A DNA stretch of 64,000 nucleotides from an uncultured Acidimicrobiales bacterium (GCA_937922235.1 CAKZVC010000027.1:11968-75967), one strand, 5' to 3'; positions 8,096-28,110 are shown, counted from the first letter of the stretch. A program made the numbers and translations. Notes: generated by a model not told the origin, from the sequence alone.

Positions 8096-8461
8096 ATGAC
8101 TGGGCCAATGATCCCCGAGCCCGAAGGGCGAGCAATGATCCCCGAGCCCGGAGGGCGAGCAATGTTGAAGTGGAGCGTGTCGATCAAGGCCGAAGGCGAT
8201 CGACCAATGGAGCTCGAAGAGATCGTCGAGCTCGCTGACGCAGTCGCTCCACTGGGAGGCGTGGCATCGGGTGTCGGCGCAATGAGCTACGGCGCACAGA
8301 TCGTGGTCGAGGCCGAGAGCTCCGACCAGGCCGTCGAGGTGGCGATCCCACTGTTCGAGAAGGCCGTTGTCACAGCAGGCATTCCGCCGTGGCCGGTCAC
8401 CAAGGCCGAGGTCATTGGCGAAGACGAGGGTTTCGTCGACGACGACGGCATCCCCACATGA
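8096..8461 (+). CDS. Hypothetical small protein; the 5' end contains a 27-bp in-frame tandem duplication
   Basis: ORF track frame. Candidate ATGs at 8096, 8108, 8135 and 8162. The true start may be 8162 (MLKWSVSIKAEGD...) behind GGAGGG. Confidence 0.45.
   Translation: MTGPMIPEPEGRAMIPEPGGRAMLKWSVSIKAEGDRPMELEEIVELADAVAPLGGVASGVGAMSYGAQIVVEAESSDQAVEVAIPLFEKAVVTAGIPPWPVTKAEVIGEDEGFVDDDGIPT
8108..8161. repeat. 27-bp perfect-but-one tandem duplication (2 units)
   Basis: atgatccccgagcccgaagggcgagca / atgatccccgagcccggagggcgagca read directly from the sequence. Confidence 0.9.
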
Positions 8462-8898
8462 TCCGCCTCGGCTCGCTTGCCGGCTATCCGTTCGAAGGTC
8501 CTCGCGTTCTCGGCGGGTGGCAGCCGCCCGAAACTGCCGCCGTCTACGTGATCCTCTACCGGGCTGACCCTGAAGGGAAGCCGCACGACTTTGCCGTCAT
8601 CGACGTCGATCACGCAGACAATCTGAAGGACGCAAAGCTGCCGTTTGGGCACCCGCGCTCGAAATGCTGGGAACGACGGGCCGGCACCAAGTGGGGCGTA
8701 CACATCGCCACCTACGAAGTGCCTGGCGGAACCACAGCGCACCGCGAGCAGATCGTCAAGGAGCTGCTAGCGGTCTACAAGCCCGGTTGCTCGCCGGATC
8801 AGTACGACCAGGCGTGGGATGACGACTGGATTCAGACCTACGACGCCCACAACACCACCGGCCCGCTCACCACCAACCGCGATCCGAACGAGACTTAG
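8458..8898 (+). CDS. Hypothetical protein (146 aa)
   Basis: ATGA overlap with the preceding ORF (8458-8461). MIRLGSLAGYPFEGPRVLGG... No family recognised. Confidence 0.5.
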   Translation: MIRLGSLAGYPFEGPRVLGGWQPPETAAVYVILYRADPEGKPHDFAVIDVDHADNLKDAKLPFGHPRSKCWERRAGTKWGVHIATYEVPGGTTAHREQIVKELLAVYKPGCSPDQYDQAWDDDWIQTYDAHNTTGPLTTNRDPNET

Positions 8899-9269
8899 CC
8901 GTCGAGCTCGGGCGGTGCGTGAGTGAAGAAGCCGTCGATTCGCTCGATCAGCCCAGCCTCGTTGAGCGTGGTCACGTCCATGCCCCGGACGATTACCTTG
9001 CTGCGGTACAGGATCTCCCACAGGTACCGGTGCCTCCGGTTCTGCAGGTCAAAGCCACTCGCCCGGCGATAGATGGCGTTCGGGATCTTCTCCTTAACTT
9101 CGATGGCCATGGCGACGAGCTCGGCGTGGCCGACCTTGTAGGCGTTCGGGTCGGCGAAGATCACGTCGTCGGAACAACACGTTTGGATGAGAGGCAGGAG
9201 TGCCTCGTGATCGGGCTCGTTCCACATCTTCCAGTAGGTCTCGAGCACTGAGGGGAAGTCATTCGACAT
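8895..9269 (-). CDS. NTF2-like / SnoaL-like small protein
   Basis: 124 aa. N-terminal ETYWKMWNEPD... pattern typical of SnoaL-like polyketide-cyclase fold proteins. Confidence 0.6.
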   Translation of the reverse strand: MSNDFPSVLETYWKMWNEPDHEALLPLIQTCCSDDVIFADPNAYKVGHAELVAMAIEVKEKIPNAIYRRASGFDLQNRRHRYLWEILYRSKVIVRGMDVTTLNEAGLIERIDGFFTHAPPELDG

Positions 9270-9364
9270 ACGGCGACGTTAGCCGAGGATCCGTTTTTCG
9301 ATGGCGTGGAAACCGTTGTCGCGGTAGGTTCCGGACTACCGGCCCCGCAACGAGGAGGAATCCC

Positions 9365-9688
9365 ATGCCGAAGTACATGCTGACCTATCACGGAACGATG
9401 TCTATGGAAGACATGCCAACCGACCCTGAAGCCATCGGACAGATGATGGCCGTTTGGGGCGCTTGGTACGAGAGCATGGGCGACGCCCTGGTCGACGGTG
9501 GAGCACCCACTTCGCACTCGACGGCGATCGACGCCAACGGTGCAGTCGATGCGCCGGCAAGCCTCACCGGCTACACCATCGTCGACTGTGCTGACATGGC
9601 AGCTGCGACCGCTATTGCCGAAGGCAGCCCCGTGCTCGCCGGCGGCCACACGGTGCAGATTTCCGAGTGCATCGACATGGGGATGTAG
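9365..9688 (+). CDS. YciI/DGPF-like family protein
   Basis: ATG at 9365 preceded by AGGAGGA. MPKYMLTYHG... start and ...GYTIVDCADMAAATAIAEGSP... are typical of YCII-related proteins. Confidence 0.6.
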   Translation: MPKYMLTYHGTMSMEDMPTDPEAIGQMMAVWGAWYESMGDALVDGGAPTSHSTAIDANGAVDAPASLTGYTIVDCADMAAATAIAEGSPVLAGGHTVQISECIDMGM

Positions 9689-9708
9689 CGGACCGAGGTG
9701 TAGTGCAA

Positions 9709-9794
9709 CCTGGTCCCGCGGGACCAGGGGCAAATCGTCGTGTCACACCCCACGAGTAGGCTGACTAGCGAAGCTTGCGAGCACCGTCAGCCTA
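9709..9794. repeat. 86-bp structured repeat, left (inverted) copy
   Basis: Reverse complement of 10906-10991 with 5 mismatches (hand alignment). Contains the 20-bp perfect palindrome cctggtcccgcgggaccagg (9709-9728) and a 9-bp stem TAGGCTGAC/GTCAGCCTA (9757-9794) around an AAGCTT-containing loop. Confidence 0.85.
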
Positions 9795-9830
9795 GGTCTT
9801 GGCCAATGAGTGGCTCACAAAATTCAATCT

Positions 9831-10823
9831 CTAGCTCGCTTGCTGGTGTCGGAAGCGATGGCACGTGGCGCACCGGAGTTCGAGCTCATCGACAACCGTC
9901 CGCTTGGACTCCTCGTAGTCAGGCACGTGGTCGTACTGAAGCAGTTCGCTGCTGCCGCAATCAAGGCACGTTCGGTCCCGCTCTTTCACCACACGTTTCT
10001 GCCGAGCGGTCGGATGGCGTTGCCGAGACGACGCGTTGATCGGACGGCCTTCGGCATCGTGAATGAGAGCTCGGATGAAGGACTCCCCGATCAAGCTGGC
10101 GACCGAGCTCATGGTCAGCGGGGTTCCGTCGTCGAGCGTCGATCCGTCACCCCGAACGTGGATGACGACTTCGGCCGCCACACTCGCTCCCCCATCGCCG
10201 AGCACCTCGACGAGCGCATCGGCCCGTTGCTGAGCGAGCGAGGGCCATTCGGTATCCGCCTCCTTGGGTTGATGCGCTTGACGCATGACCTGAGCGTCGA
10301 TCGCCGCAGCAAAGACGCCCGCTGCTGCCGGGCTTAGTCGACCAGCGACACTGACCATCCCATCACGCTCTGTCTGCCACCGGAGTGAGCGGGCGTCGTG
10401 ATGACGAGCATCGATGGCCTCGTCGTGTTCGTAACGCTGGAGCCACGCCGCAATCGCCTGCCCAAGCTCGCTCGCTGGCACGGTTTCCGCCAGCTCGAGG
10501 AGATCGAGCTCGTTCTCGGGAGTGGCCGACCGCGTTAGTTCCTTGGCCTTGCTGAACGAGATCCGGTGGCCACTCAACGCCTCAGCTGTCGCGGGCAGCT
10601 CTCGAAGACAACGCCCGATGCGAATCCACTCGTTCGCCGTGCGATGTGCGATCTCCAGCTTGTCAGCAATCCACCGACTTGCCGACGAGTACCCTGCGAG
10701 TGCCCACTCGGTGCTGTCTGCGAAGTCGGCCGCGAGGTGGACCACCTGTGACTGATTGTCGTTCGCTTCCCAGCCGATCTCGACCAGTTGCTCGCCGATA
10801 ACTCCCATGCCCAGAACCTTCAT
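9831..10823 (-). CDS. HNH endonuclease with DUF222-type N-terminal domain (REP13E12-like family)
   Basis: C-terminal ...RDRTCLDCGSSELLQYDHVPDYEESKRTVVDELELRCATCHRFRH (HNH). The N-terminal helical region matches the DUF222 pattern. Confidence 0.85.
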   Translation of the reverse strand: MKVLGMGVIGEQLVEIGWEANDNQSQVVHLAADFADSTEWALAGYSSASRWIADKLEIAHRTANEWIRIGRCLRELPATAEALSGHRISFSKAKELTRSATPENELDLLELAETVPASELGQAIAAWLQRYEHDEAIDARHHDARSLRWQTERDGMVSVAGRLSPAAAGVFAAAIDAQVMRQAHQPKEADTEWPSLAQQRADALVEVLGDGGASVAAEVVIHVRGDGSTLDDGTPLTMSSVASLIGESFIRALIHDAEGRPINASSRQRHPTARQKRVVKERDRTCLDCGSSELLQYDHVPDYEESKRTVVDELELRCATCHRFRHQQAS

Positions 10824-10905
10824 CTCGATGATCCGGGCGGTCTTCGTTGCGGACTGCCGACGCTGTCTTGGGGAGCATTTACCCCGTCACGAACTGCTCA
10901 ATACA

Positions 10906-10991
10906 TAGGCTGACGGTGCTCGCAAGCTTCGCTAGTCAGCCTACTGATGGGGTGTGACACGACGTTCGGCCCCTGGTCCCGCGGGACCAGG
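10906..10991. repeat. 86-bp structured repeat, right copy
   Basis: See 9709-9794. Palindrome at 10972-10991. Confidence 0.85.
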
Positions 10992-11114
10992 TGGTCACGG
11001 CGCCGCCCCCAGACAGGGGTGCACACACCCCCACCAAGATGCTCCTAGCCACCATGGTCGCTCATCGGTGGTTCCCGCAGGGTGTGTGTAACAACACCGT
11101 GAAGGGACAAGAAG

Positions 11115-12692
11115 ATGCGGGCACGACCAAGACATACTCACCGGCTTTGGATAGCCGCTTTAGCTCTTGCGCTGATGGCGACTGCCTGTGGCAGCGACGC
11201 CGCAGTGCAGGCCACAGAACAAGACAACGTCGCAATCGGGGCGCCATCGGATGGCGAATCGGGTGAAGCCCCTCCTGAGAATCCCAATCCCGTCGAGGAC
11301 AGTGACGGCAGCGAGGACTACCCCGACGTCACCGAAACCGAAGCGGTACACAGCGATACGGTCACCGACCCCGAGCCGGATGAAGAGCACGGCGACGACG
11401 GTGCCGTCGACCCCGAAGGCGACGTTCCACACGACGACTTCCTTCATGACCCTGCCGCTCCCGGAGTCTTGATGATCGCGGAGGAAGCAGTCGGCGAAGA
11501 GGTCGGCGCCACCATGGCGCTCGATGCCGATACGTCGCTACCAGTGCTCACCGTCGACTACGGAACGGCGAGCGCAGAGATCGCCTTCACCCTGCCGCAC
11601 TACGACATTGGCGGAGCGAAGCTCACGCTTGCGAATGGCGATGTCATCGACCTGAGCGAACCATCGCTCGGGTATCCGTCGACGGCCGTAACGCTCGAAG
11701 CGCCAATCCCAGGATCTGACTCGGATTGGGCACGATTCGCCACGTCTTTTCTCGCTGGCACGACCTCGTTCGATATCGACGGGAACCGTGCAATCATCAC
11801 TGGCCGAATCGGAACAAACACCATTGCGCAGATCCAACACCTTGTCGATGAACACCCTGAGGTCGACACACTGGTGCTCGCCCAGATCGATGGCGCCGTC
11901 GAAGACCACATCGAAGCCACCTTTGGGCGAGTTGATCCGTGGCGGTTCACCCAACTCGCCAGCGACCTCATCCGTGAGCACGGGTTCACAACGGTGATAC
12001 CGGTAGACGGTCGAGTAACCGATCGCGGCTTGCTTCTCTTCGCCGGCGGCGAGGAGCGCATCGTCGAAAGCACAGAAGGTGCCTTCCACGAGCAGCAAGT
12101 CGGCGAACTGAGTGTTCGGGCCGAATGTTGCGGCCTGACCGCGGACGACGCTGACTCCGACGTCTTCTACGACCAATACTCAGCCGTACACGAAGCTGAC
12201 GTTCAACGATGGTCGTCGCTGTTGGGCGAGGAAGCTGGCACGGCGCTGGCGCTCCACCTTGCACAACAGTCGATCGGCGGACCACACCAGCTCAGTCGAG
12301 TTGAGCTCGACGCGTTCAACCTGGTGACGACACCAGCCGCCCTAAGCACTGCGACCGACTTCGCTCCGATTGCCGATGACCCGGCCCTCGGCTCACTCGA
12401 CCTCAACATCACGGTCAGCCGGCCAGAAGAGCTCCTCGACGCCATCGCCAAGGCGTTCAACGCAGCGCAAGCCGACGTCGAAGAGGGACGCGAGGTCGCA
12501 ACGCCGTGGGTCGTTACCCACGGCGACACCACATTGGGCTATCTACTTATCGAGGGCGGCCTCGACGACGCCGTCCGAGGCCAACTGTCGGCCCTCGTGC
12601 TCGAGGGTGACGACAGCTTTGGTTGGGTCGCCACGGACGTGTCGAACCGCTACCTCTGCTCACGAGGCCTTAGCGACGGCCTGTGCATCTGA
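11115..12692 (+). CDS. Secreted lipoprotein, acidic N-terminal linker, function unknown (525 aa)
   Basis: Lipobox LALALMATAC|GSD after a basic N-terminus, followed by an Asp/Glu/Pro-rich linker. Confidence 0.7.
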   Translation: MRARPRHTHRLWIAALALALMATACGSDAAVQATEQDNVAIGAPSDGESGEAPPENPNPVEDSDGSEDYPDVTETEAVHSDTVTDPEPDEEHGDDGAVDPEGDVPHDDFLHDPAAPGVLMIAEEAVGEEVGATMALDADTSLPVLTVDYGTASAEIAFTLPHYDIGGAKLTLANGDVIDLSEPSLGYPSTAVTLEAPIPGSDSDWARFATSFLAGTTSFDIDGNRAIITGRIGTNTIAQIQHLVDEHPEVDTLVLAQIDGAVEDHIEATFGRVDPWRFTQLASDLIREHGFTTVIPVDGRVTDRGLLLFAGGEERIVESTEGAFHEQQVGELSVRAECCGLTADDADSDVFYDQYSAVHEADVQRWSSLLGEEAGTALALHLAQQSIGGPHQLSRVELDAFNLVTTPAALSTATDFAPIADDPALGSLDLNITVSRPEELLDAIAKAFNAAQADVEEGREVATPWVVTHGDTTLGYLLIEGGLDDAVRGQLSALVLEGDDSFGWVATDVSNRYLCSRGLSDGLCI

Positions 12693-12721
12693 TGCAATCC
12701 GTGCGGCCGCCCTCGTGGAAG

Positions 12722-12880
12722 TCAGTCGGGGTTGTAACCGACGCCTTCCATGAGGCGGCTGCGGCGGCTACCCATTGCTGGGAGGGCCGGCGGCGCTTCG
12801 TAGTCGGCTGGGCGAGGCTCGTGGGTGGCGCCGACGACGATGTCCTCAGCGAATCCATAGAGCTCCGGCGACGATGCCGC
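12722..12880 (-). pseudogene. Orphan 3'-terminal fragment (direct-repeat copy A) of the 120-aa membrane gene at 16946-17308
   Basis: 12726-12880 aligns to 16950-17115 with 9 mismatches and one 11-bp indel. It encodes ...LYGFAEDIVVGATHEPRPADYEAPPALPAMGSRRSRLMEGVGYNPD plus TGA but has no 5' part. Confidence 0.8.
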
Positions 12881-13156
12881 AGTTCACCCTCAATCCAAAA
12901 GCTGATGCGCCGTGCCGGCGCCCACTGGGGTGTGCGCCTTCCGACCAACGAGGTTCGAGACAGAAAGCGCTGACAACTGCGAACAATTGAGGAGCTCCTC
13001 GCCGTCTAAAAGCCCGGCTGCTCCCCCGAGCAGTACGACCAGTCTCGGGAAGAGGAGTGGAGCCAGACGTTCTAAGCGAGAGCTAGCCGTTCACCCTCCG
13101 TACTTGCTCATCGGGGACGGTCGTGCGTGACATTGCGCAACCAATTTGAACTCAGA

Positions 13157-15661
13157 CTATGAGTTATCTCGACCATAGGCGTGCTCCACGTGTCCGCGAA
13201 ACTCGAGGAATTCGATGAGTACCCGTTCAGGCTGCGAGCCAAGATAAGAGCCATACAGCTTGGAAATACCAGATTGTGCCCTAACGACCTCGTCCTTGTT
13301 GAGGTAGTCCCCAACGCCCGAACTGGACCAAGCTGGAATGGTTCTCGCTGCAACCTCGAATGCCGTTGCCGTATAGCCCGAAGCATATGCAGCCGCCCCG
13401 ATGAGTGAAGCACCAAGGACACTGGGTGCCTCGCTGTCAAGTATTGAATCGCGGTACCAGCGCCAAAGCTGAGAAGCATGAAATGGATCTCGCCACTGAA
13501 ACGACGCAACGAGCGCACTTGTCACTCGAAGCCAAGTTGATGCAGTTGTTGTAGCGTCGTTCACACGCGACGCAGTCATGGAAAGCACAAGTGTTGAAGA
13601 GTCTTGTGGGCCATCGTCGAATGAGATTTCGAGAGCAAGTGCGTACAGCTGAGCTGTGTGATCAGCTCGATCGGCCTCGTCGGTAAGATTCTGTAGAGCT
13701 CCCGCAAGTAAGATGGAGACTCGGTTCGTGAATTGCCGTAGTTGGCTAACTGTCGCGATTGCCTCAACGAGCAAAGCTCTTTGGCGTTCGTTTGTAGCAT
13801 CACCGAAACAGCGAACGAGCGATTGGATAGAGGATTGCAAGGCGGGTGCGACCGCGGCATCAGCCCCTGGACGGGCGCCTCGGCCACGTTCGATCCACAA
13901 CAGATGGTGGCCGATGTGATCGCGAAGATCCCTAGCCACCCTCAACGTGCGACCTCGGTTACCTCGACCTGCCTCGGCTACCAAGACTTCGATCATTGAC
14001 GAGGCGCTCTCCTCGACGGCTTCGACTGCAGCAGAGGATCGTGAGCGAAAGACCGTTCGGGCTTGTGCGACCTGCAGTTGGTCAGGCCACCGATGCGCGT
14101 TCGGAACGATACCTGCGACCTCATGACCTTCAGGGACGATGTTTCCAAGACCGCCAACAACCTCGAGCTTCAACTCACCCGTACTCCACGGCGGACGACG
14201 CCCCAGACGTTGAAGATGCCGTTTTGAGAGGGTGTGAAACCCCTGTCGTTCGGAGTGAATCACGATGCGTGAGCGCTGGCTAGCTCTGAACGAGTCGTGA
14301 GAGACGAAACGGGAGTCCAAGACAAAATTTCTTACCGCCAGCATCCTCCGCTGGAGCCAACCAAACCTAAGTCCGGCCCAGCTGACCAAGAGCTGTTGCG
14401 ACTGGCTAAAGCGGTGGACGGCAATAACGCTGTCGGTACTCCGAACGAGCGACACCAAAGACCCGGCGACTAAGGCGGTGAGACAAGTGAACCCCAACAA
14501 CTGTCCGCGCAGGAGGTGCTGTCTGGAGTCCTCGAACCATCGTTGATCAAGCAAATATGTAATAAGGAGGAGTCCTAGAAGCGTGGCGTACCCCGCACGA
14601 ACCGGTAGTGAGAACGAAGAATGACGTCCGATCGAGCCTGGCAGGCGACCTGCTGCAATCTGTGCAGAGACAAGTTGTGCTGTGATAAGGACACCTGCAA
14701 CTGCAAGCGTCTCGGAGAGTCCAATTGCGCTGTTGGGCGTGACTTGATCAAGGCCAGGTCCAAAGATCGCCGCAGTGATTAGTGCTAGGGGAATTGCTGG
14801 AACCGCACGAGCAAGGATCGCCCTTACCCCCAGCGTGCGTGCAAGTGTGTCCGGCCGACCTTCCACAGCTGCGGCGGTCCCGTGACGTGCCAGCGCCGCG
14901 CAGAAAGTCTGAATCTCTTTGGCTGTGTACTCAGAATACGCGAAGAGCCTGTTCGCCCGGGCTGAGTTGTTCTTTGTTGCAGTCGCAAACCCGATTGCGG
15001 CTGCAGATCGTGCAACACCGCTTTGATCTTCGCTCGCCAGCTTCGCCACTAACTCATCAAGCTGTGGGTGCGACGCCACGATTGACCTGGCTGCCTGGAC
15101 AGCAGCGACTTGAATCGGAGAAAAGACGTATGGGCTTTGAGGAATAACAGCGCGCTGAAGACAGTGTTCTAATAGTGCCCCGGCGTCATCAGATCGGAGC
15201 GATGCTGCGACGCGAGATATCGCGATGAGCGCGGCTACGTAGCCGTCACGAGGGAGTTCATTAGGAGACAGGCAAACGTTCTCCCAGAGTTCAACCGATC
15301 TTTGAGATGGGTCTCGTTGCTCAGCTGCAATGGAGGTGACCGACGCTGAAACTAGGCTAGGTGACATCGTCAACCGAAGCGTGTTCGCCACCGTCAACCG
15401 CGACCCCTTTGGGTTGAGACACAACAGAGCGATCTCCGGCGCCTTGAGGACGACATCGTCAAACTCTGAAACAGTGAGCCTTGCCATGCCGTCACGCACG
15501 GCTAGAGGTGGACCAGACCTATCGAATAGAAACTTGGTCAGCCTCGCGTTTCGCTTCAAGAGCGGCAAATTCTGCTTGATCACAAGGATCAAGATCCACC
15601 TGAGAGCACCGTGTAATTTCGTTACGAACGACTGGAGCACCCGCCGTCTAACTCGCGTCAT
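13157..15661 (-). CDS. Uncharacterised 834-aa protein: helical-repeat N-terminus, central cluster of about 4 TM helices, large helical C-terminal region
   Basis: Long ORF in a lower-GC islet. ATGA overlap with the upstream ORF. Hydrophobic stretches at residues about 281-406 (14444-14821). No family confidently recognised. Confidence 0.7.
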   Translation of the reverse strand: MTRVRRRVLQSFVTKLHGALRWILILVIKQNLPLLKRNARLTKFLFDRSGPPLAVRDGMARLTVSEFDDVVLKAPEIALLCLNPKGSRLTVANTLRLTMSPSLVSASVTSIAAEQRDPSQRSVELWENVCLSPNELPRDGYVAALIAISRVAASLRSDDAGALLEHCLQRAVIPQSPYVFSPIQVAAVQAARSIVASHPQLDELVAKLASEDQSGVARSAAAIGFATATKNNSARANRLFAYSEYTAKEIQTFCAALARHGTAAAVEGRPDTLARTLGVRAILARAVPAIPLALITAAIFGPGLDQVTPNSAIGLSETLAVAGVLITAQLVSAQIAAGRLPGSIGRHSSFSLPVRAGYATLLGLLLITYLLDQRWFEDSRQHLLRGQLLGFTCLTALVAGSLVSLVRSTDSVIAVHRFSQSQQLLVSWAGLRFGWLQRRMLAVRNFVLDSRFVSHDSFRASQRSRIVIHSERQGFHTLSKRHLQRLGRRPPWSTGELKLEVVGGLGNIVPEGHEVAGIVPNAHRWPDQLQVAQARTVFRSRSSAAVEAVEESASSMIEVLVAEAGRGNRGRTLRVARDLRDHIGHHLLWIERGRGARPGADAAVAPALQSSIQSLVRCFGDATNERQRALLVEAIATVSQLRQFTNRVSILLAGALQNLTDEADRADHTAQLYALALEISFDDGPQDSSTLVLSMTASRVNDATTTASTWLRVTSALVASFQWRDPFHASQLWRWYRDSILDSEAPSVLGASLIGAAAYASGYTATAFEVAARTIPAWSSSGVGDYLNKDEVVRAQSGISKLYGSYLGSQPERVLIEFLEFRGHVEHAYGRDNS

Positions 15662-16911
15662 AGGTCGACGTGAGCAGATAGGTAGAGCTCCCTCTGATCG
15701 CTCCGTCGCATACGGTCAAGAACCGGAAGCAACCGTGCCACGTCTCGATCGAGTTCGTCGACGAGGTGTTCGAACACTCCTTCCTGAGCGAGGAGCTTTG
15801 TTCTTACTGGCCCTGCTTCCACCTGATCCATATCGATCGTATTGGTAGCAGCCAGTACAAACTTTGCAGCCCGCGCCCGCGCGATCTGAGGTATCAGGGG
15901 TAAGAGAACGCTATGACCGACCCTGGTTCCGAAATACTCCAGCCCACGTTGATGAAGCACCGGATCAAGAACTTCCTCCGCTCGTCCCGATGAATTCATC
16001 ACTCGAAAGGTGTCATTCCCGGCTATCTCCACCTTTGTCGGATCCAAACAGTACGCACCAATGGGCTCTAGCTGGTTAAACGCGAGAAATCCATTTCCTC
16101 GAACGAGGGCGTCTCGCGATGCATGGGCAAAAAACCGTTCGATTTCAAGGATACTCATACTGGCTTCAAGCTCTCTTGCCATCGAAGCGGGGAGGGCCGA
16201 ACCATGTATCTTCCACGGGTTAGACGCGATCATGTTGACCGCTCCATCGACTGCACCTCTCACTACAGCGCAGGAGTTGTATGCCCAATCACACAAGGTT
16301 CCTATGCGTTCGGCCTGGGCCGGGGAGCATACGGGCTCGTCCTCAAACATGAGTTTCAGTGAGATTCCCGCCTGACTTGATCGTGATTGAACTAGTCGTG
16401 CCGCAGATCTCCACCCGTTTTGAAGCGCATCCACAGCCTCAGCGTGCGCATGTGTGTCGGCACTCCCAGCCGCAGTTTCTAGGTCGAGATAGGACGCACC
16501 ATTCGCCATTGCTGCGCCTACCATCTCACGACGGGATAGCAGCTGCATCAGCCAATCTAGAAACGCTTCAACAATCAGACTGGCTGGTCCGTTGACGACC
16601 AGGGATACGTGAACTACCCCGACTGTCCAGGCATCTGTTGGAAGCAGATCCTGTTCAAGCTCCTGCACTTGAAACAGGAATAGGTCGGGGCTCAAATAGC
16701 CCGAGCTTTCCGCCATCGAGACATAGATCGTCATTTGCCGATCTTCGTTCGACGAAATGAGCTCACCTAGCTCGGTGATTTGAGAGCGAATAGCCTCCAC
16801 ATGCCCAGGAGATGGGTTGGCCAAACGTTGCTCAAGTAGAGCAACATCGTCCATTCTGAACGCAGTAGGAAGCTCTCGCCATGCCTTTTTTGGTCGCTCC
16901 GACTGTTCCAC
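15658..16911 (-). CDS. Uncharacterised 417-aa soluble protein
   Basis: Long ORF, GTG start 34 nt downstream of the stop of gene 16946-17308. Lower GC than the surroundings. No family confidently recognised. Confidence 0.7.
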   Translation of the reverse strand: MEQSERPKKAWRELPTAFRMDDVALLEQRLANPSPGHVEAIRSQITELGELISSNEDRQMTIYVSMAESSGYLSPDLFLFQVQELEQDLLPTDAWTVGVVHVSLVVNGPASLIVEAFLDWLMQLLSRREMVGAAMANGASYLDLETAAGSADTHAHAEAVDALQNGWRSAARLVQSRSSQAGISLKLMFEDEPVCSPAQAERIGTLCDWAYNSCAVVRGAVDGAVNMIASNPWKIHGSALPASMARELEASMSILEIERFFAHASRDALVRGNGFLAFNQLEPIGAYCLDPTKVEIAGNDTFRVMNSSGRAEEVLDPVLHQRGLEYFGTRVGHSVLLPLIPQIARARAAKFVLAATNTIDMDQVEAGPVRTKLLAQEGVFEHLVDELDRDVARLLPVLDRMRRSDQRELYLSAHVDL

Positions 16912-16945
16912 ATCTTCAGGCTAATGGACCGGGATGTACCACCAT

Positions 16946-17308
16946 CTACTCGGGGTTGTAGCCGACGCCTTCCATGAGGCGGCTGCGGCGGCTGCCCATT
17001 GCTGGGAGGGCTGGCGGGTTCTCGTAGTCGGCTGGGCGAGGCTCGTGGGTGGCGCCGACGACGATGTCCTCGGCGAATCCGTAGAGCAGCGGGAGAGCTC
17101 CGGCGACGATGCCGCCGGTGGCGTTGACGCTTTGCAGCCCAGGCTCGATAGCGGCGGTGTCGCCCTTGATCTTCCACACGAGCTCAGCGCACTCTTCGAG
17201 CAGCGTCGCTACCCGACCGAGCTGGCTGCCCAGCACGTAGAGGAAGAACGCAAGCCCGGCGATGAGCAGCGTGATGGCAACAACGGAGAGAGTGACGAGT
17301 GTGCTCAT
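16946..17308 (-). CDS. Small single-pass membrane protein, paralog 5 of a tandem array, with Pro-rich C-terminal tail (120 aa)
   Basis: N-terminal TM LVTLSVVAITLLIAGLAFFLYVL. ATGA overlap with the upstream paralog. Confidence 0.6.
   Translation of the reverse strand: MSTLVTLSVVAITLLIAGLAFFLYVLGSQLGRVATLLEECAELVWKIKGDTAAIEPGLQSVNATGGIVAGALPLLYGFAEDIVVGATHEPRPADYENPPALPAMGSRRSRLMEGVGYNPE
16950..17115. repeat. Direct-repeat copy B (inside the 3' end of the intact gene 16946-17308)
   Basis: Hand alignment to 12726-12880. Confidence 0.85.
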
Positions 17309-17592
17309 GAGCGGACCTTTTCGTAGACACGGCCCAAGAACAGGTGATGGTTCAGGCCTTCGTTCAAGACACCCTCGACGCTCGTGGCGGTCGGGCCGAT
17401 CAACGACGTGTCGCCGGTGTTCGCAGCCGCTGCCTCAAGCGTGGCTTTGATCGCCGTGACTCGGGTCTCGATTGTGCTGACGAACTTGACCAGCAAGCTG
17501 AGCAACACCACGACAGCGACAATCACGATGAAGCCCAGGATGATGGCAGTCCACCAGAGCTCTTCGTTTCGTTCGGTCAATGCAAGCAGCAT
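17305..17592 (-). CDS. Small single-pass membrane protein, paralog 4 (95 aa)
   Basis: TM WWTAIILGFIVIVAVVVLLSLLV followed by an amphipathic helix. Junction TGATCATG with the upstream gene. Confidence 0.6.
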   Translation of the reverse strand: MLLALTERNEELWWTAIILGFIVIVAVVVLLSLLVKFVSTIETRVTAIKATLEAAAANTGDTSLIGPTATSVEGVLNEGLNHHLFLGRVYEKVRS

Positions 17593-17594
17593 GA

Positions 17595-17849
17595 TCAGCC
17601 CCCCAACTTTGCTCGGCCTCGGGCGAGGCCTTCGGTGATCGCGTTCGCAGACTCGATCGTTGTTTGCAGGCCGGCTAGGCCTGCAGTGTTCTTCACCGAC
17701 TGTTCAAGCGAAGCGTTGATATCGCTCGCTCGGTTTCCAATCGAATTGGCGAGAGTCAGGATCGACACGACGAGTGCAACCACCGCAAGCACGATGATGC
17801 CGCCGAGCCAGAACCCCCAGTCCCATCCAGACGCAGCAAATACGGTCAT
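17595..17849 (-). CDS. Small single-pass membrane protein, paralog 3 (84 aa)
   Basis: TM FWLGGIIVLAVVALVVSILTL. GAGGGG upstream of the ATG. Confidence 0.6.
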   Translation of the reverse strand: MTVFAASGWDWGFWLGGIIVLAVVALVVSILTLANSIGNRASDINASLEQSVKNTAGLAGLQTTIESANAITEGLARGRAKLGG

Positions 17850-17851
17850 AG

Positions 17852-18079
17852 CTAAATCCCCTCTGCGAAGTCTCGAACCGGCTTCAAGCTGGCATTTACG
17901 GACTCGACGACGGCAGGCACAGTCGAGGTCTTGTCAGCAATGACATCAACCCCACCGGTCAGCGCTTCGAGCGTCTTGTCGACTTGATACAAGTGGCCAA
18001 TGACTCGGCTGAGTCCAACGGCGGCAAAGACCACGATTAAGAGGGCGAGGAATACCGTCACCCAGGCAACAAATGGCAT
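17852..18079 (-). CDS. Small single-pass membrane protein, paralog 2 (75 aa)
   Basis: TM VAWVTVFLALLIVVFAAVGL. AGGAG upstream of the ATG. Confidence 0.6.
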   Translation of the reverse strand: MPFVAWVTVFLALLIVVFAAVGLSRVIGHLYQVDKTLEALTGGVDVIADKTSTVPAVVESVNASLKPVRDFAEGI

Positions 18080-18085
18080 GTTCTC

Positions 18086-18340
18086 CTACTCCCCTGGTAG
18101 CAACTTGGCGACCGAACCGGCGTAGCGCACAGCGCCATCGGCCACTTCGGCAACAGTCGTATCGGTCTGGGCCAGCAAGTCTGGCGTCGTGTCGAGATCG
18201 CCAATGGCAGCAACGCCGCCGGCGAGAATGTCGTCGCTTGCTTTGCGGATGCGTTCAACCGCACCGAGCAGACGGCTGAGCAACGCCACAGCCACCAGCG
18301 CTGCGACGAGCAGCAAGATGTTTCCAATCCACCACAACAT
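18086..18340 (-). CDS. Small single-pass membrane protein, paralog 1 (84 aa)
   Basis: TM WWIGNILLLVAALVAVALL. GGAGG 6 nt upstream, inside the coxG 3' end. Junction TGATCATG. Confidence 0.6.
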   Translation of the reverse strand: MLWWIGNILLLVAALVAVALLSRLLGAVERIRKASDDILAGGVAAIGDLDTTPDLLAQTDTTVAEVADGAVRYAGSVAKLLPGE

Positions 18341-28018: not shown

Positions 28019-28025
28019 ACGCGCC

Positions 28026-28110
28026 TAGGCTTCCGGTGCTCGCAAGCTTCGCTAGGTAGCCTACTTCGGGGGTCTGACAGTGACCGACGGGCCTGGTCCC
28101 CCGGGACCAA
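28026..28110. repeat. Third, diverged solo copy of the 86-bp structured repeat (same orientation as 10906-10991)
   Basis: taggcttccggtgctcgcaagcttcgctaggtagcctac...cctggtcccccgggaccaa. Both hairpins are retained. Confidence 0.7.

Follow-up and report, generated by a model that had tools for sequence, protein, structure and literature searches.

The 64,000-nt stretch of DNA analysed here at its full length (the window) comes from an uncultured Acidimicrobiales bacterium (GCA_937922235.1, CAKZVC010000027.1:11968-75967) and holds a cox gene cluster of the CO-dehydrogenase type, followed by two large open reading frames (ORFs) of 417 and 834 amino acids (aa), here called ORF417 and ORF834. In this study, we found that these two genes form an evidently foreign cassette, that ORF417 is predicted to have the fold of a phage portal protein, and that ORF834 is a predicted membrane protein which accompanies it; the pair is a candidate for a conflict module. 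On the minus strand, the cox cluster consists of the genes for an FAD subunit, a 2Fe-2S subunit, CoxL, an XdhC/CoxF-like protein and CoxG, followed by five genes for small predicted membrane proteins (16946-18340; 84, 75, 84, 95 and 120 aa), none of which has a Pfam family. The last of them, sm120, is followed on the same strand by ORF417 and ORF834 (Table 1). ORF417 and ORF834 overlap by 4 nt (15658-15661), and they appear to be translationally coupled. Because the gap between sm120 and ORF417 is only 34 nt long and no terminator-like site was found in it, read-through from the cox operon into the pair may be possible; a promoter-like site was not found in this gap either.

The pair is surrounded by direct repeats. 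A repeat search of the window gave 12726-12868 and 16950-17092 with 92% identity, together with an exact 22-mer (12859-12880 and 17094-17115) that is offset by an 11-nt indel. Blastn joined these parts into repeats of 12726-12880 and 16950-17115 with 88.0% identity over 166 columns, including one 11-nt gap, and 147 of the 158 positions are identical when the gap is left out. The copy next to the operon (copy B, 16950-17115) is the last ~56 codons and the stop of the intact sm120 on the minus strand. The distant copy (copy A) ends in ...GYNPD and its own TGA, and has no 5' part. The first-pass annotation of this DNA had described the repeats with their 11-bp indel, the relation of both copies to the 120-aa gene and the two overlapping ORFs, and our results agreed with it on all of these. 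An independent 8.4-kb contig (L081; the loci labelled L are related or homologue-bearing contigs compared with the window) is 99.4% identical and, starting from coxL, crosses the islet and copy A and reaches into the lipoprotein gene, and the copy-A joint is also crossed by two Logan contigs from separate runs. An assembly chimera was ruled out by these three independent contigs, which span the joints.

Table 1. Features at the end of the cox operon in the window, listed from sm120 to gene X.
Feature	Position	Strand	Remarks
sm120	16946-17308	-	Small membrane protein of 120 aa, intact; at the end of the coxMSL-xdhC-coxG-small-protein operon
Gap from sm120 stop to ORF417 start	16912-16945	-	34 nt
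ORF417	15658-16911	-	417 aa, GTG start; soluble, predicted portal-protein fold
ORF834	13157-15661	-	834 aa; polytopic membrane protein (hydropathy, alignments)
Spacer from X' fragment to ORF834 stop	13069-13156	.	No homology detectable by homology search
X', decayed piece of the 3' part of gene X	12881-13068	+	By blastn and alignment; joined directly to copy A
S' (repeat copy A), orphaned 3' fragment of sm120	12722-12880	-	From codon ~66 to the TGA stop, 11-nt deletion
lipo525	11115-12692	+	Predicted lipoprotein; genome-typical GC3; in none of the 80 relatives
DUF222 + HNH endonuclease gene	9831-10823	-	Element 9708-10992 including the flanking 94-nt inverted repeats
Inverted repeats of the HNH element	9708-9801 and 10899-10992		94 nt each
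124-aa ORF	8895-9269	-	First gene of the variable region; not in relatives
Gene X	8389-8898	+	Conserved, 169 aa; coxE upstream; X' comes from this family

The islet differs from its surroundings in composition. The windowed GC was 0.54-0.58 inside the islet interval, compared with 0.61-0.65 outside. In a simple gene call based on the GC content at third codon positions (GC3), restricted to genes of at least 100 codons, the two ORFs had GC3 values of 0.53 and 0.55, while the 53 other genes of the window had 0.72 +/- 0.046; the corresponding z-scores of -4.2 and -3.7 are the lowest two in the window. These values bore out the AT-richness of the interval, which had been read earlier from spot counts.

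Comparison with related loci revealed how the site looks in other genomes. Orthologues of sm120 were found in 80 loci, taken from species representatives only, at 50-93% identity. In about 30 of these loci, whose range includes Acidimicrobiales, Nanopelagicales and Pseudonocardia, 35-70 nt separate the stop of sm120 from that of the convergent gene X, and a single repeat copy is present. The homology of the window to these empty-site relatives ends at 16946/7 and resumes at 8903, so that, compared with the empty site, an insert of ~8 kb (8904-16945) is present and not one of 4 kb (12881-16945) as assumed at first. In plus-strand order, it consists of the 124-aa ORF, the DUF222 + HNH element, the 525-aa lipoprotein gene, copy A and the two-gene islet. 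The expected single-copy site was thus seen in relatives, but with gene X as the convergent partner and not the lipoprotein gene at 11115-12692. Neither ORF417 and ORF834 nor the lipoprotein gene is present in any of the 80 related loci. Because the site is empty in relatives, the composition is atypical and the pair is missing from all 80 related loci, the cassette is considered foreign; the islet DNA has evidently been acquired horizontally, as the first-pass annotation had proposed.

The sm120/gene X junction is an insertion hot spot that tends to gather defence-type and mobile genes, because different relatives carry different cargo in this same gap. In L001, the closest relative (98.5% identity in CoxL), the HNH element is the sole cargo of the gap; L004 also has this element. 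L002 carries a gene for a DUF1883-TIR protein, L010 one for a cyclase-family protein, and L008 (10638-14621, in the gap after sm120) those for a DUF4041-T5orf172 protein, a 419-aa protein and an rve-family transposase. In the window, lipo525 is part of older cargo at the same hot spot, and the DUF222-HNH gene with its 94-nt inverted repeats, which had not been noted before, lies 2 kb from the islet.

The ~94-nt repeat occurs in three copies in the window, the third at 28024-28109, and holds a 20-nt perfect palindrome, CCTGGTCCCGCGGGACCAGG. The same inverted pair of ~94-nt repeats surrounds the DUF222 + HNH gene of L001. The gene next to the third copy was not found to be a paralogue of the HNH gene. 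The repeat looks like a repetitive extragenic palindrome or miniature inverted-repeat transposable element (REP/MITE-like), or like the ends of an HNH-associated mobile unit. Concerning the operon itself, at least three of the five small genes (those of 84, 95 and 120 aa), together with gene X and coxE, are conserved in many related loci, and the small-gene set is an uncharacterised conserved appendage of form-I-like cox clusters.

The structure of the copy-A end is informative about how the cassette came to this site. X' is joined directly to copy A. Its part at 12990-13068 matches 8759-8837 of gene X with 79.7% identity by blastn, and gene X of L009 matches 12908-13067 of the window. Overall, X' and gene X are ~75-80% identical with several indels, and the last ~60 nt are lost. 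In the multiple alignment, the homology to gene X starts within a few bases of 12880, giving a sharp S'|X' joint at 12880/12881; a possible 4-nt GCCG microhomology at this joint is within chance. The plus-strand order is gene X, older cargo, S' | X', ORF834, ORF417 and S (sm120). At the empty site, X and S point towards each other from the two sides of the gap, while S' and X' of the window are joined back to back.

The first-pass annotation had taken the duplicated gene end as the scar of site-specific integration. A mobile islet would have integrated into the 3' end of sm120, the ~155-bp repeats would be the attachment sites attL and attR, and the recombinase would have acted in trans or been lost. 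Direct repeats that bracket low-GC DNA beside a regenerated target gene agree with this, and elsewhere the pair sometimes lies in integrase-bearing elements. However, the repeats are not the sole duplicated sequence, since the gene X fragment (12881-13068) is joined to copy A, and a crossover between attachment sites cannot produce such a joint. Moreover, the two copies are 7-12% diverged with an 11-nt indel and are not an identical core, and the real empty site is an intergenic gap and not a position inside sm120. Integrase, transposase and transfer RNA (tRNA) genes were not found beside the islet, whose neighbours are the lipoprotein, DUF222-HNH and cox genes; no integrase or recombinase was recognised by Pfam among the ORFs of the interval and its surroundings, and the window has no tRNA. 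L016 and L002 (metagenome-assembled genome CAZFBD01) show an independent duplication with the same topology at the same hot spot and with different cargo, where the downstream partial copy starts at codon 40 of the 95-aa gene (sm95), compared with codon 66 of sm120 in the window. These different endpoints argue against an attachment site. From the fused joint, the diverged copies, the missing recombinase and the endpoints in L002 and L016, the idea of a site-specific integration scar was not upheld, and we consider it very unlikely.

The arrangement in these two loci is as follows. L002 (1-6600) and L016 have a complete sm120, two secreted/lipoprotein genes (580 and 344 aa) and a partial sm95 (codons 40-94), after which a second full sm120, the gene for the DUF1883-TIR protein and that for a 506-aa protein are found.

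Sequence comparison has largely established that the locus is a homology-anchored insertion beside a conserved anchor, of the homology-facilitated illegitimate recombination (HFIR) or Campbell type, with no site-specific recombinase. The features that correspond to these types are the anchor (sm120 and the cox operon), the novel joint at 12880/12881, and the downstream shift of S' and the older cargo. In this scheme, the ancestral site is the gap of 35-70 nt that separates sm120 from the convergent gene X. A fragment from another lineage, which would have carried ORF417 and ORF834 between the 3' part of sm120 and a piece of gene X, would have inserted with sm120 as the homologous anchor, by single-crossover integration of the circularised fragment or by HFIR with sm120 and the operon as the anchor. 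The insertion would have moved the recipient's own sm120 3' end (copy A) and the older cargo (lipoprotein, HNH element) downstream and would have made the novel joint X'|S' at 12880/12881, and a site-specific recombinase would not be required. The corresponding donor arrangement, sm120-ORF417-ORF834-gene X, was not found, the 80 sm120 loci without the pair being species representatives only.

A single simple event does not explain that S and S' are 93% identical and X and X' only ~80%, which counts against this scheme. Gene conversion between the repeats, or a crossover inside the repeat, would explain the mismatch. The same values bear on an intragenomic tandem duplication of a ~450-bp segment (3' end of gene X, gap and 3' end of sm120), followed by a separate insertion into each copy of the gap. 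Such a duplication would give precisely the order X .. S' | X' .. S, and the gap is a demonstrated hot spot. On the other hand, three events are needed and not one, and similar values for X/X' (~80%) and S/S' (93%) are expected if both were duplicated together and decayed neutrally. We regard the tandem duplication as rather unlikely and prefer the homology-anchored insertion.

Between the window and L081 (12527-20890 of the window), there are 48 differences, all located at or beyond 17233 at ~12 per kb. No differences are found in 12527-17232, a tract of 4.7 kb with the islet, both repeat copies and the end of the lipoprotein gene. This tract free of single-nucleotide polymorphisms could come from a recent strain-to-strain exchange with a breakpoint in sm120, or from a single strain whose flanks are the consensus of several. 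The second possibility speaks against recent transfer, as the tract could be the product of a consensus assembly of mixed strains. In a further comparison, the 3' part of sm120 (16946-17115) is 91% identical to that of L001 and the 5' part (17116-17308) 84%, whereas the other relatives all show lower conservation in the 3' part than in the 5' part. This pattern hints weakly at recombination with a breakpoint close to codon 66 of sm120.

The homologues of ORF417 were collected by an exhaustive HMMER search, as word-indexed searches with ORF417, ORF834 and the family profile returned only the query itself or one homologue. It gave 101 clusters (at 50% identity) of ~400-aa proteins with 23-34% identity to ORF417. 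The GTG start at 16911 is backed by the family-invariant L14-P15, which lies upstream of the ATG used in a 398-aa database call. The AlphaFold2 (AF2) model of ORF417, built on a 70-sequence alignment, had a mean predicted local distance difference test value (pLDDT) of 92.8 and a predicted template modelling score (pTM) of 0.90. Nearly all of the 50 PDB matches listed by Foldseek were portal or portal-containing structures (PhiV-1/T7, lambda, HK97, Mu, T4, HFTV1 and others), with a Foldseek probability of ~1.0 to portals, and they included the Avs4-portal complex 8dgf. Among the 50 BFVD matches listed, those with names were almost all portals; a minority of the rows were unnamed, and a few had other labels such as capsid assembly protein.

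The Pfam profile Phage_portal (PF04860) matched residues 217-349 of ORF417 at profile positions 3-146 of 321 with 16.7 bits, which is below the cut-off of 39.1 (E = 0.0044), and it matched 16 of 70 family members weakly, the best with E = 1.8e-6. The residues R127, Y211, D222, R266, D267, G272 and P291 and the motif RDxxVxGNG are invariant in the family. The larger motif YNxxxxVRxAVD...RDxxVxGNG (Y211-N212, R218, D222, R266-D267) is common to a protein on the IMG/VR viral contig L087, which is 37% identical to ORF417 over 70 aa across the invariant motif; relative to this viral protein, ORF417 has ~140 aa of extra N-terminal sequence. The viral protein itself gave a weak PDB match to a solved portal (E = 0.084) and no INPHARED match. 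The gene upstream of it had no PDB match, and we do not claim it as a terminase. Sequence-profile searches of PDB with the ORF417 and ORF834 families were empty or gave chance-level matches only. ORF417 had no match in PADLOC-DB v2 (E <= 0.1), PHROGs or NCBIfam.

Because of the confident fold match to portals, the weak Pfam match and the motif in common with a viral protein, we conclude that ORF417 derives from a tailed-phage portal protein, although by score it is not a member of the curated family and it has no phage gene context. The first-pass annotation had recognised no family for ORF417, which is superseded by the portal fold and the ~100 homologues. Its statement on the nearby genes was right for integrase, transposase and tRNA, which are not found beside the islet, but not quite for phage genes, since ORF417 itself is portal-like.

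In its AF2 model, ORF834 has a helical N-terminal domain (1-260) and a transmembrane region, which are followed by a long helix, by a small domain of beta structure (453-541) and by a C-terminal domain of helical repeats. Its hydropathy profile has three strong segments and one weaker, conserved at positions ~280-406, and the second and third of them are connected by an invariant loop, AxRLPGxxxR...S. ORF834 is thus predicted to be an inner-membrane protein with three to four transmembrane helices. Given four helices and the positive-inside distribution, the two large helical domains would lie in the cytoplasm together with the RLPG loop. The AF2 model is moderate, with a mean pLDDT of 74, and Foldseek found only generic HEAT/importin solenoids with template modelling scores (TM-scores) <= 0.2, which are uninformative. 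There was no match to ORF834 in Pfam (even across 11 members), NCBIfam, PADLOC (E <= 0.1) or PHROGs.

A homologue of ORF834 lies directly downstream of the ORF417 homologue in all 11 loci with downstream sequence, with the 4-nt overlap in several of them, and no third gene is conserved across the pair loci. The two members diverge in step, with amino-acid identities of 97%/97%, 90%/92% and 75%/75% in three comparisons. In each host, the GC3 of the pair is lower than that of its neighbours. The ratio of nonsynonymous to synonymous substitution rates (dN/dS) was 0.11-0.19 for ORF417 and 0.13-0.21 for ORF834, that is, both genes are under purifying selection (0.11-0.21). These observations strongly support ORF417 and ORF834 as a self-contained two-gene unit whose members would always occur together and in that order.

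The portal-like nature of ORF417 might also point to a decaying prophage, of which a portal gene and an unrelated ORF are left over. Against this, both ORFs are intact and under purifying selection, the pair is conserved in at least 11 loci with different neighbourhoods, and no other phage gene was recognised among the neighbours of the islet in the window. The purifying selection and the conserved pairing led us to reject a prophage remnant, the probability of which is close to nil.

Among the contigs examined, which have high GC and are apparently actinobacterial, the pair seems to be widely distributed but rare. It was not found by tblastn with ORF417 and motif scans in 2.9 million IMG/VR contigs, 50,697 INPHARED phage records and 72,556 PLSDB plasmids, and the motif scans of IMG/VR gave a single genuine viral protein but not the pair. 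As the first-pass annotation had suggested might be seen, the pair recurs in other genomes, and it lies there in defence islands or integrative elements. In L090, L103 and L104, a Type III restriction-modification (R-M) system is located directly downstream, followed by Terminase_6N, AAA_25 and HTH_17 genes. L091 and L092 have the same cassette with a SIR2 protein adjoining it instead. In L098 and L102, the pair is preceded by a nucleotide deaminase gene and followed by genes for a PycC-like cyclase and a DUF2510 protein, for an AAA_16 ATPase and for a member of the baeRF family. L099 has a DNA methylase, PDC-M45C (DUF488), DuOB and a tyrosine recombinase, L100 has Replic_Relax, and L101 has a tyrosine integrase, an HTH/M78 regulator and a weak BilD_N match.

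In L103 (12954-21643) and L104 (4281-13594), the Type III R-M system, a 253-aa Terminase_6N protein, an AAA_25 protein and HTH_17/HTH_3 regulators form a compact element beside the pair, which looks like a satellite or integrative element with defence cargo. In L098 (13795-15337) and L102 (12488-13964), the gene for the PycC-like (Pycsar-type) cyclase overlaps that for the small DUF2510 protein directly downstream of the pair, and they may be a variant Pycsar system with a DUF2510 effector.

Since the neighbours of the pair elsewhere are repeatedly defence genes, which is an association and not proof, we infer a conflict role. The chance that the pair is an undescribed two-gene conflict module, anti-phage or inter-element, is in our judgement about even. 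The first-pass reading of an acquired two-gene accessory system was in this respect supported and considerably sharpened, the pair being foreign, recurrent and accompanied elsewhere by defence-type neighbours. The portal-like subunit would recognise, mimic or co-assemble with the head-assembly or packaging parts of a phage (portal, terminase or scaffold), and the membrane subunit would be an anchor or an effector, for example by membrane permeabilisation or exclusion. The effector step is conjecture, because no enzymatic or toxin domain is recognisable. A more specific proposal, which we put forward tentatively and hold to be well short of probable, is that a domesticated phage portal works as an immune component, that is, as a host-encoded, membrane-tethered portal mimic that assembles into or onto a ring. 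The mimic might be a decoy for phage terminase or scaffold, or its co-assembly with incoming phage portals might switch the polytopic partner to a membrane-disrupting or excluding state.

The neighbourhoods can also be read in terms of the life cycle of a mobile element or phage satellite, which the pair would serve, for example as a satellite portal that redirects the packaging of a helper phage. This agrees with the element of L103 and L104, in which the pair lies with Terminase_6N, AAA_25 and HTH_17 genes, with the integrase and ImmA/IrrE-type regulator that adjoin it in L101, and with Replic_Relax in L100. However, the pairs of the window, L098/L102 and L091 have no capsid, terminase or replication gene, and conservation does not extend to a third gene. 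Packaging does not require a membrane protein such as the obligatory partner, and the viral, phage and plasmid collections named above did not contain the pair. We therefore give a satellite function little probability.

It is also conceivable that the pair forms a cellular membrane complex without a conflict role, such as a portal-derived DNA or protein channel or an envelope function, and that its patchiness is incidental. Portal proteins form DNA-conducting rings, the partner is membrane-embedded, and the lack of a recognisable toxin or nuclease domain would suit such a complex. On the other hand, the pair comes without an ATPase or motor, its distribution is strongly patchy with a foreign composition in every host, and its neighbours are repeatedly defence genes. 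A purely cellular complex seems quite unlikely to us.

Several points weigh against a conflict module built on a portal fold. The Foldseek TM-scores of ORF417 to portals are only 0.25-0.36 with E-values of 1e-5 to 1e-3, and the protein may keep only part of the portal architecture. The model of ORF834 is moderate (pTM 0.54) and was built on 11 sequences. No PADLOC, PHROGs, Pfam or NCBIfam model matches either protein, except for the sub-threshold portal match, and the pair has no recognisable enzymatic or toxin domain. In the window, no known defence gene adjoins the pair, and the defence role is proposed from the neighbourhood in ~5-7 informative contexts. Taken together, the gene pair matches no described family or system and is new as a candidate, and its function is suggested by its context.

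The insertion resembles arrangements that have been described for other loci. Kirchberger et al. (2017, PMC5361080) attributed the displacement arrays at Rhs and type VI secretion system (T6SS) effector-immunity loci to HFIR, and the same attribution is given for Jackson et al. (2009) as that work is cited in PMC5361080. Those arrays and this locus have in common a conserved upstream gene as the homologous anchor with new cargo beside it, older cargo and an orphaned 3' fragment shifted downstream, and no integrase. Here, however, a small membrane-protein gene that ends a cox operon takes the place of a toxin gene as the anchor, the cargo is of another kind than an effector-immunity pair, and the joint also carries a fragment of the far-side gene. 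The locus is a worked example of the recombinase-free stacking of accessory cassettes at a conserved convergent-gene junction. It illustrates that gene-end repeats can resemble attachment sites without being such, which matters for the calling of islands from flanking repeats.

It is reported that Avs4, RAZR and Rip1 are immune proteins sensing phage portal rings, and that Rip1 couples ring recognition to membrane damage (PMC13434031). Such systems illustrate that immunity is often directed at the portal ring. The mechanism proposed here would be like theirs in that a phage portal or packaging ring is the focal point of immunity. They bind the portal of the phage and have no portal-like domain, whereas here the host encodes the portal-like protein, and there is no sequence or family relationship to the pair. 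Our literature searches gave no description of a host-encoded portal-like defence protein. If the proposal is true, the pair would be the mirror image of Avs4, RAZR and Rip1, giving immunity through mimicry of a virion part, and the first defence system built from a virion structural mimic and not from a sensor of one.

Compared with the portals of tailed phages (PF04860; lambda, HK97, T7/PhiV-1, Mu and T4), ORF417 is alike in predicted fold, weak Pfam match and motif. It differs in its Pfam score (16.7 vs 39.1 bits) and TM-scores of ~0.3, in its chromosomal location outside prophages with no terminase, capsid or tail genes nearby, and in its obligatory membrane-protein partner. Kiwa (KwaA/KwaB) is a small operon of one polytopic membrane protein and one soluble protein that resides in defence islands. 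The pair shares this two-gene make-up of a membrane and a soluble protein, but it has no homology to Kiwa (no PADLOC match), has other sizes and domain content, and has the soluble protein first. Encapsulins and gene transfer agents are examples of the exaptation of virion proteins by the host. The pair is similar in that a predicted virion fold is kept by cells under purifying selection, and different in that a single portal-derived gene with a membrane partner takes the place of a capsid shell or a head-tail set. With ~100 clusters at 50% identity, this uncharted family pair would add a new case of virus-to-host exaptation.

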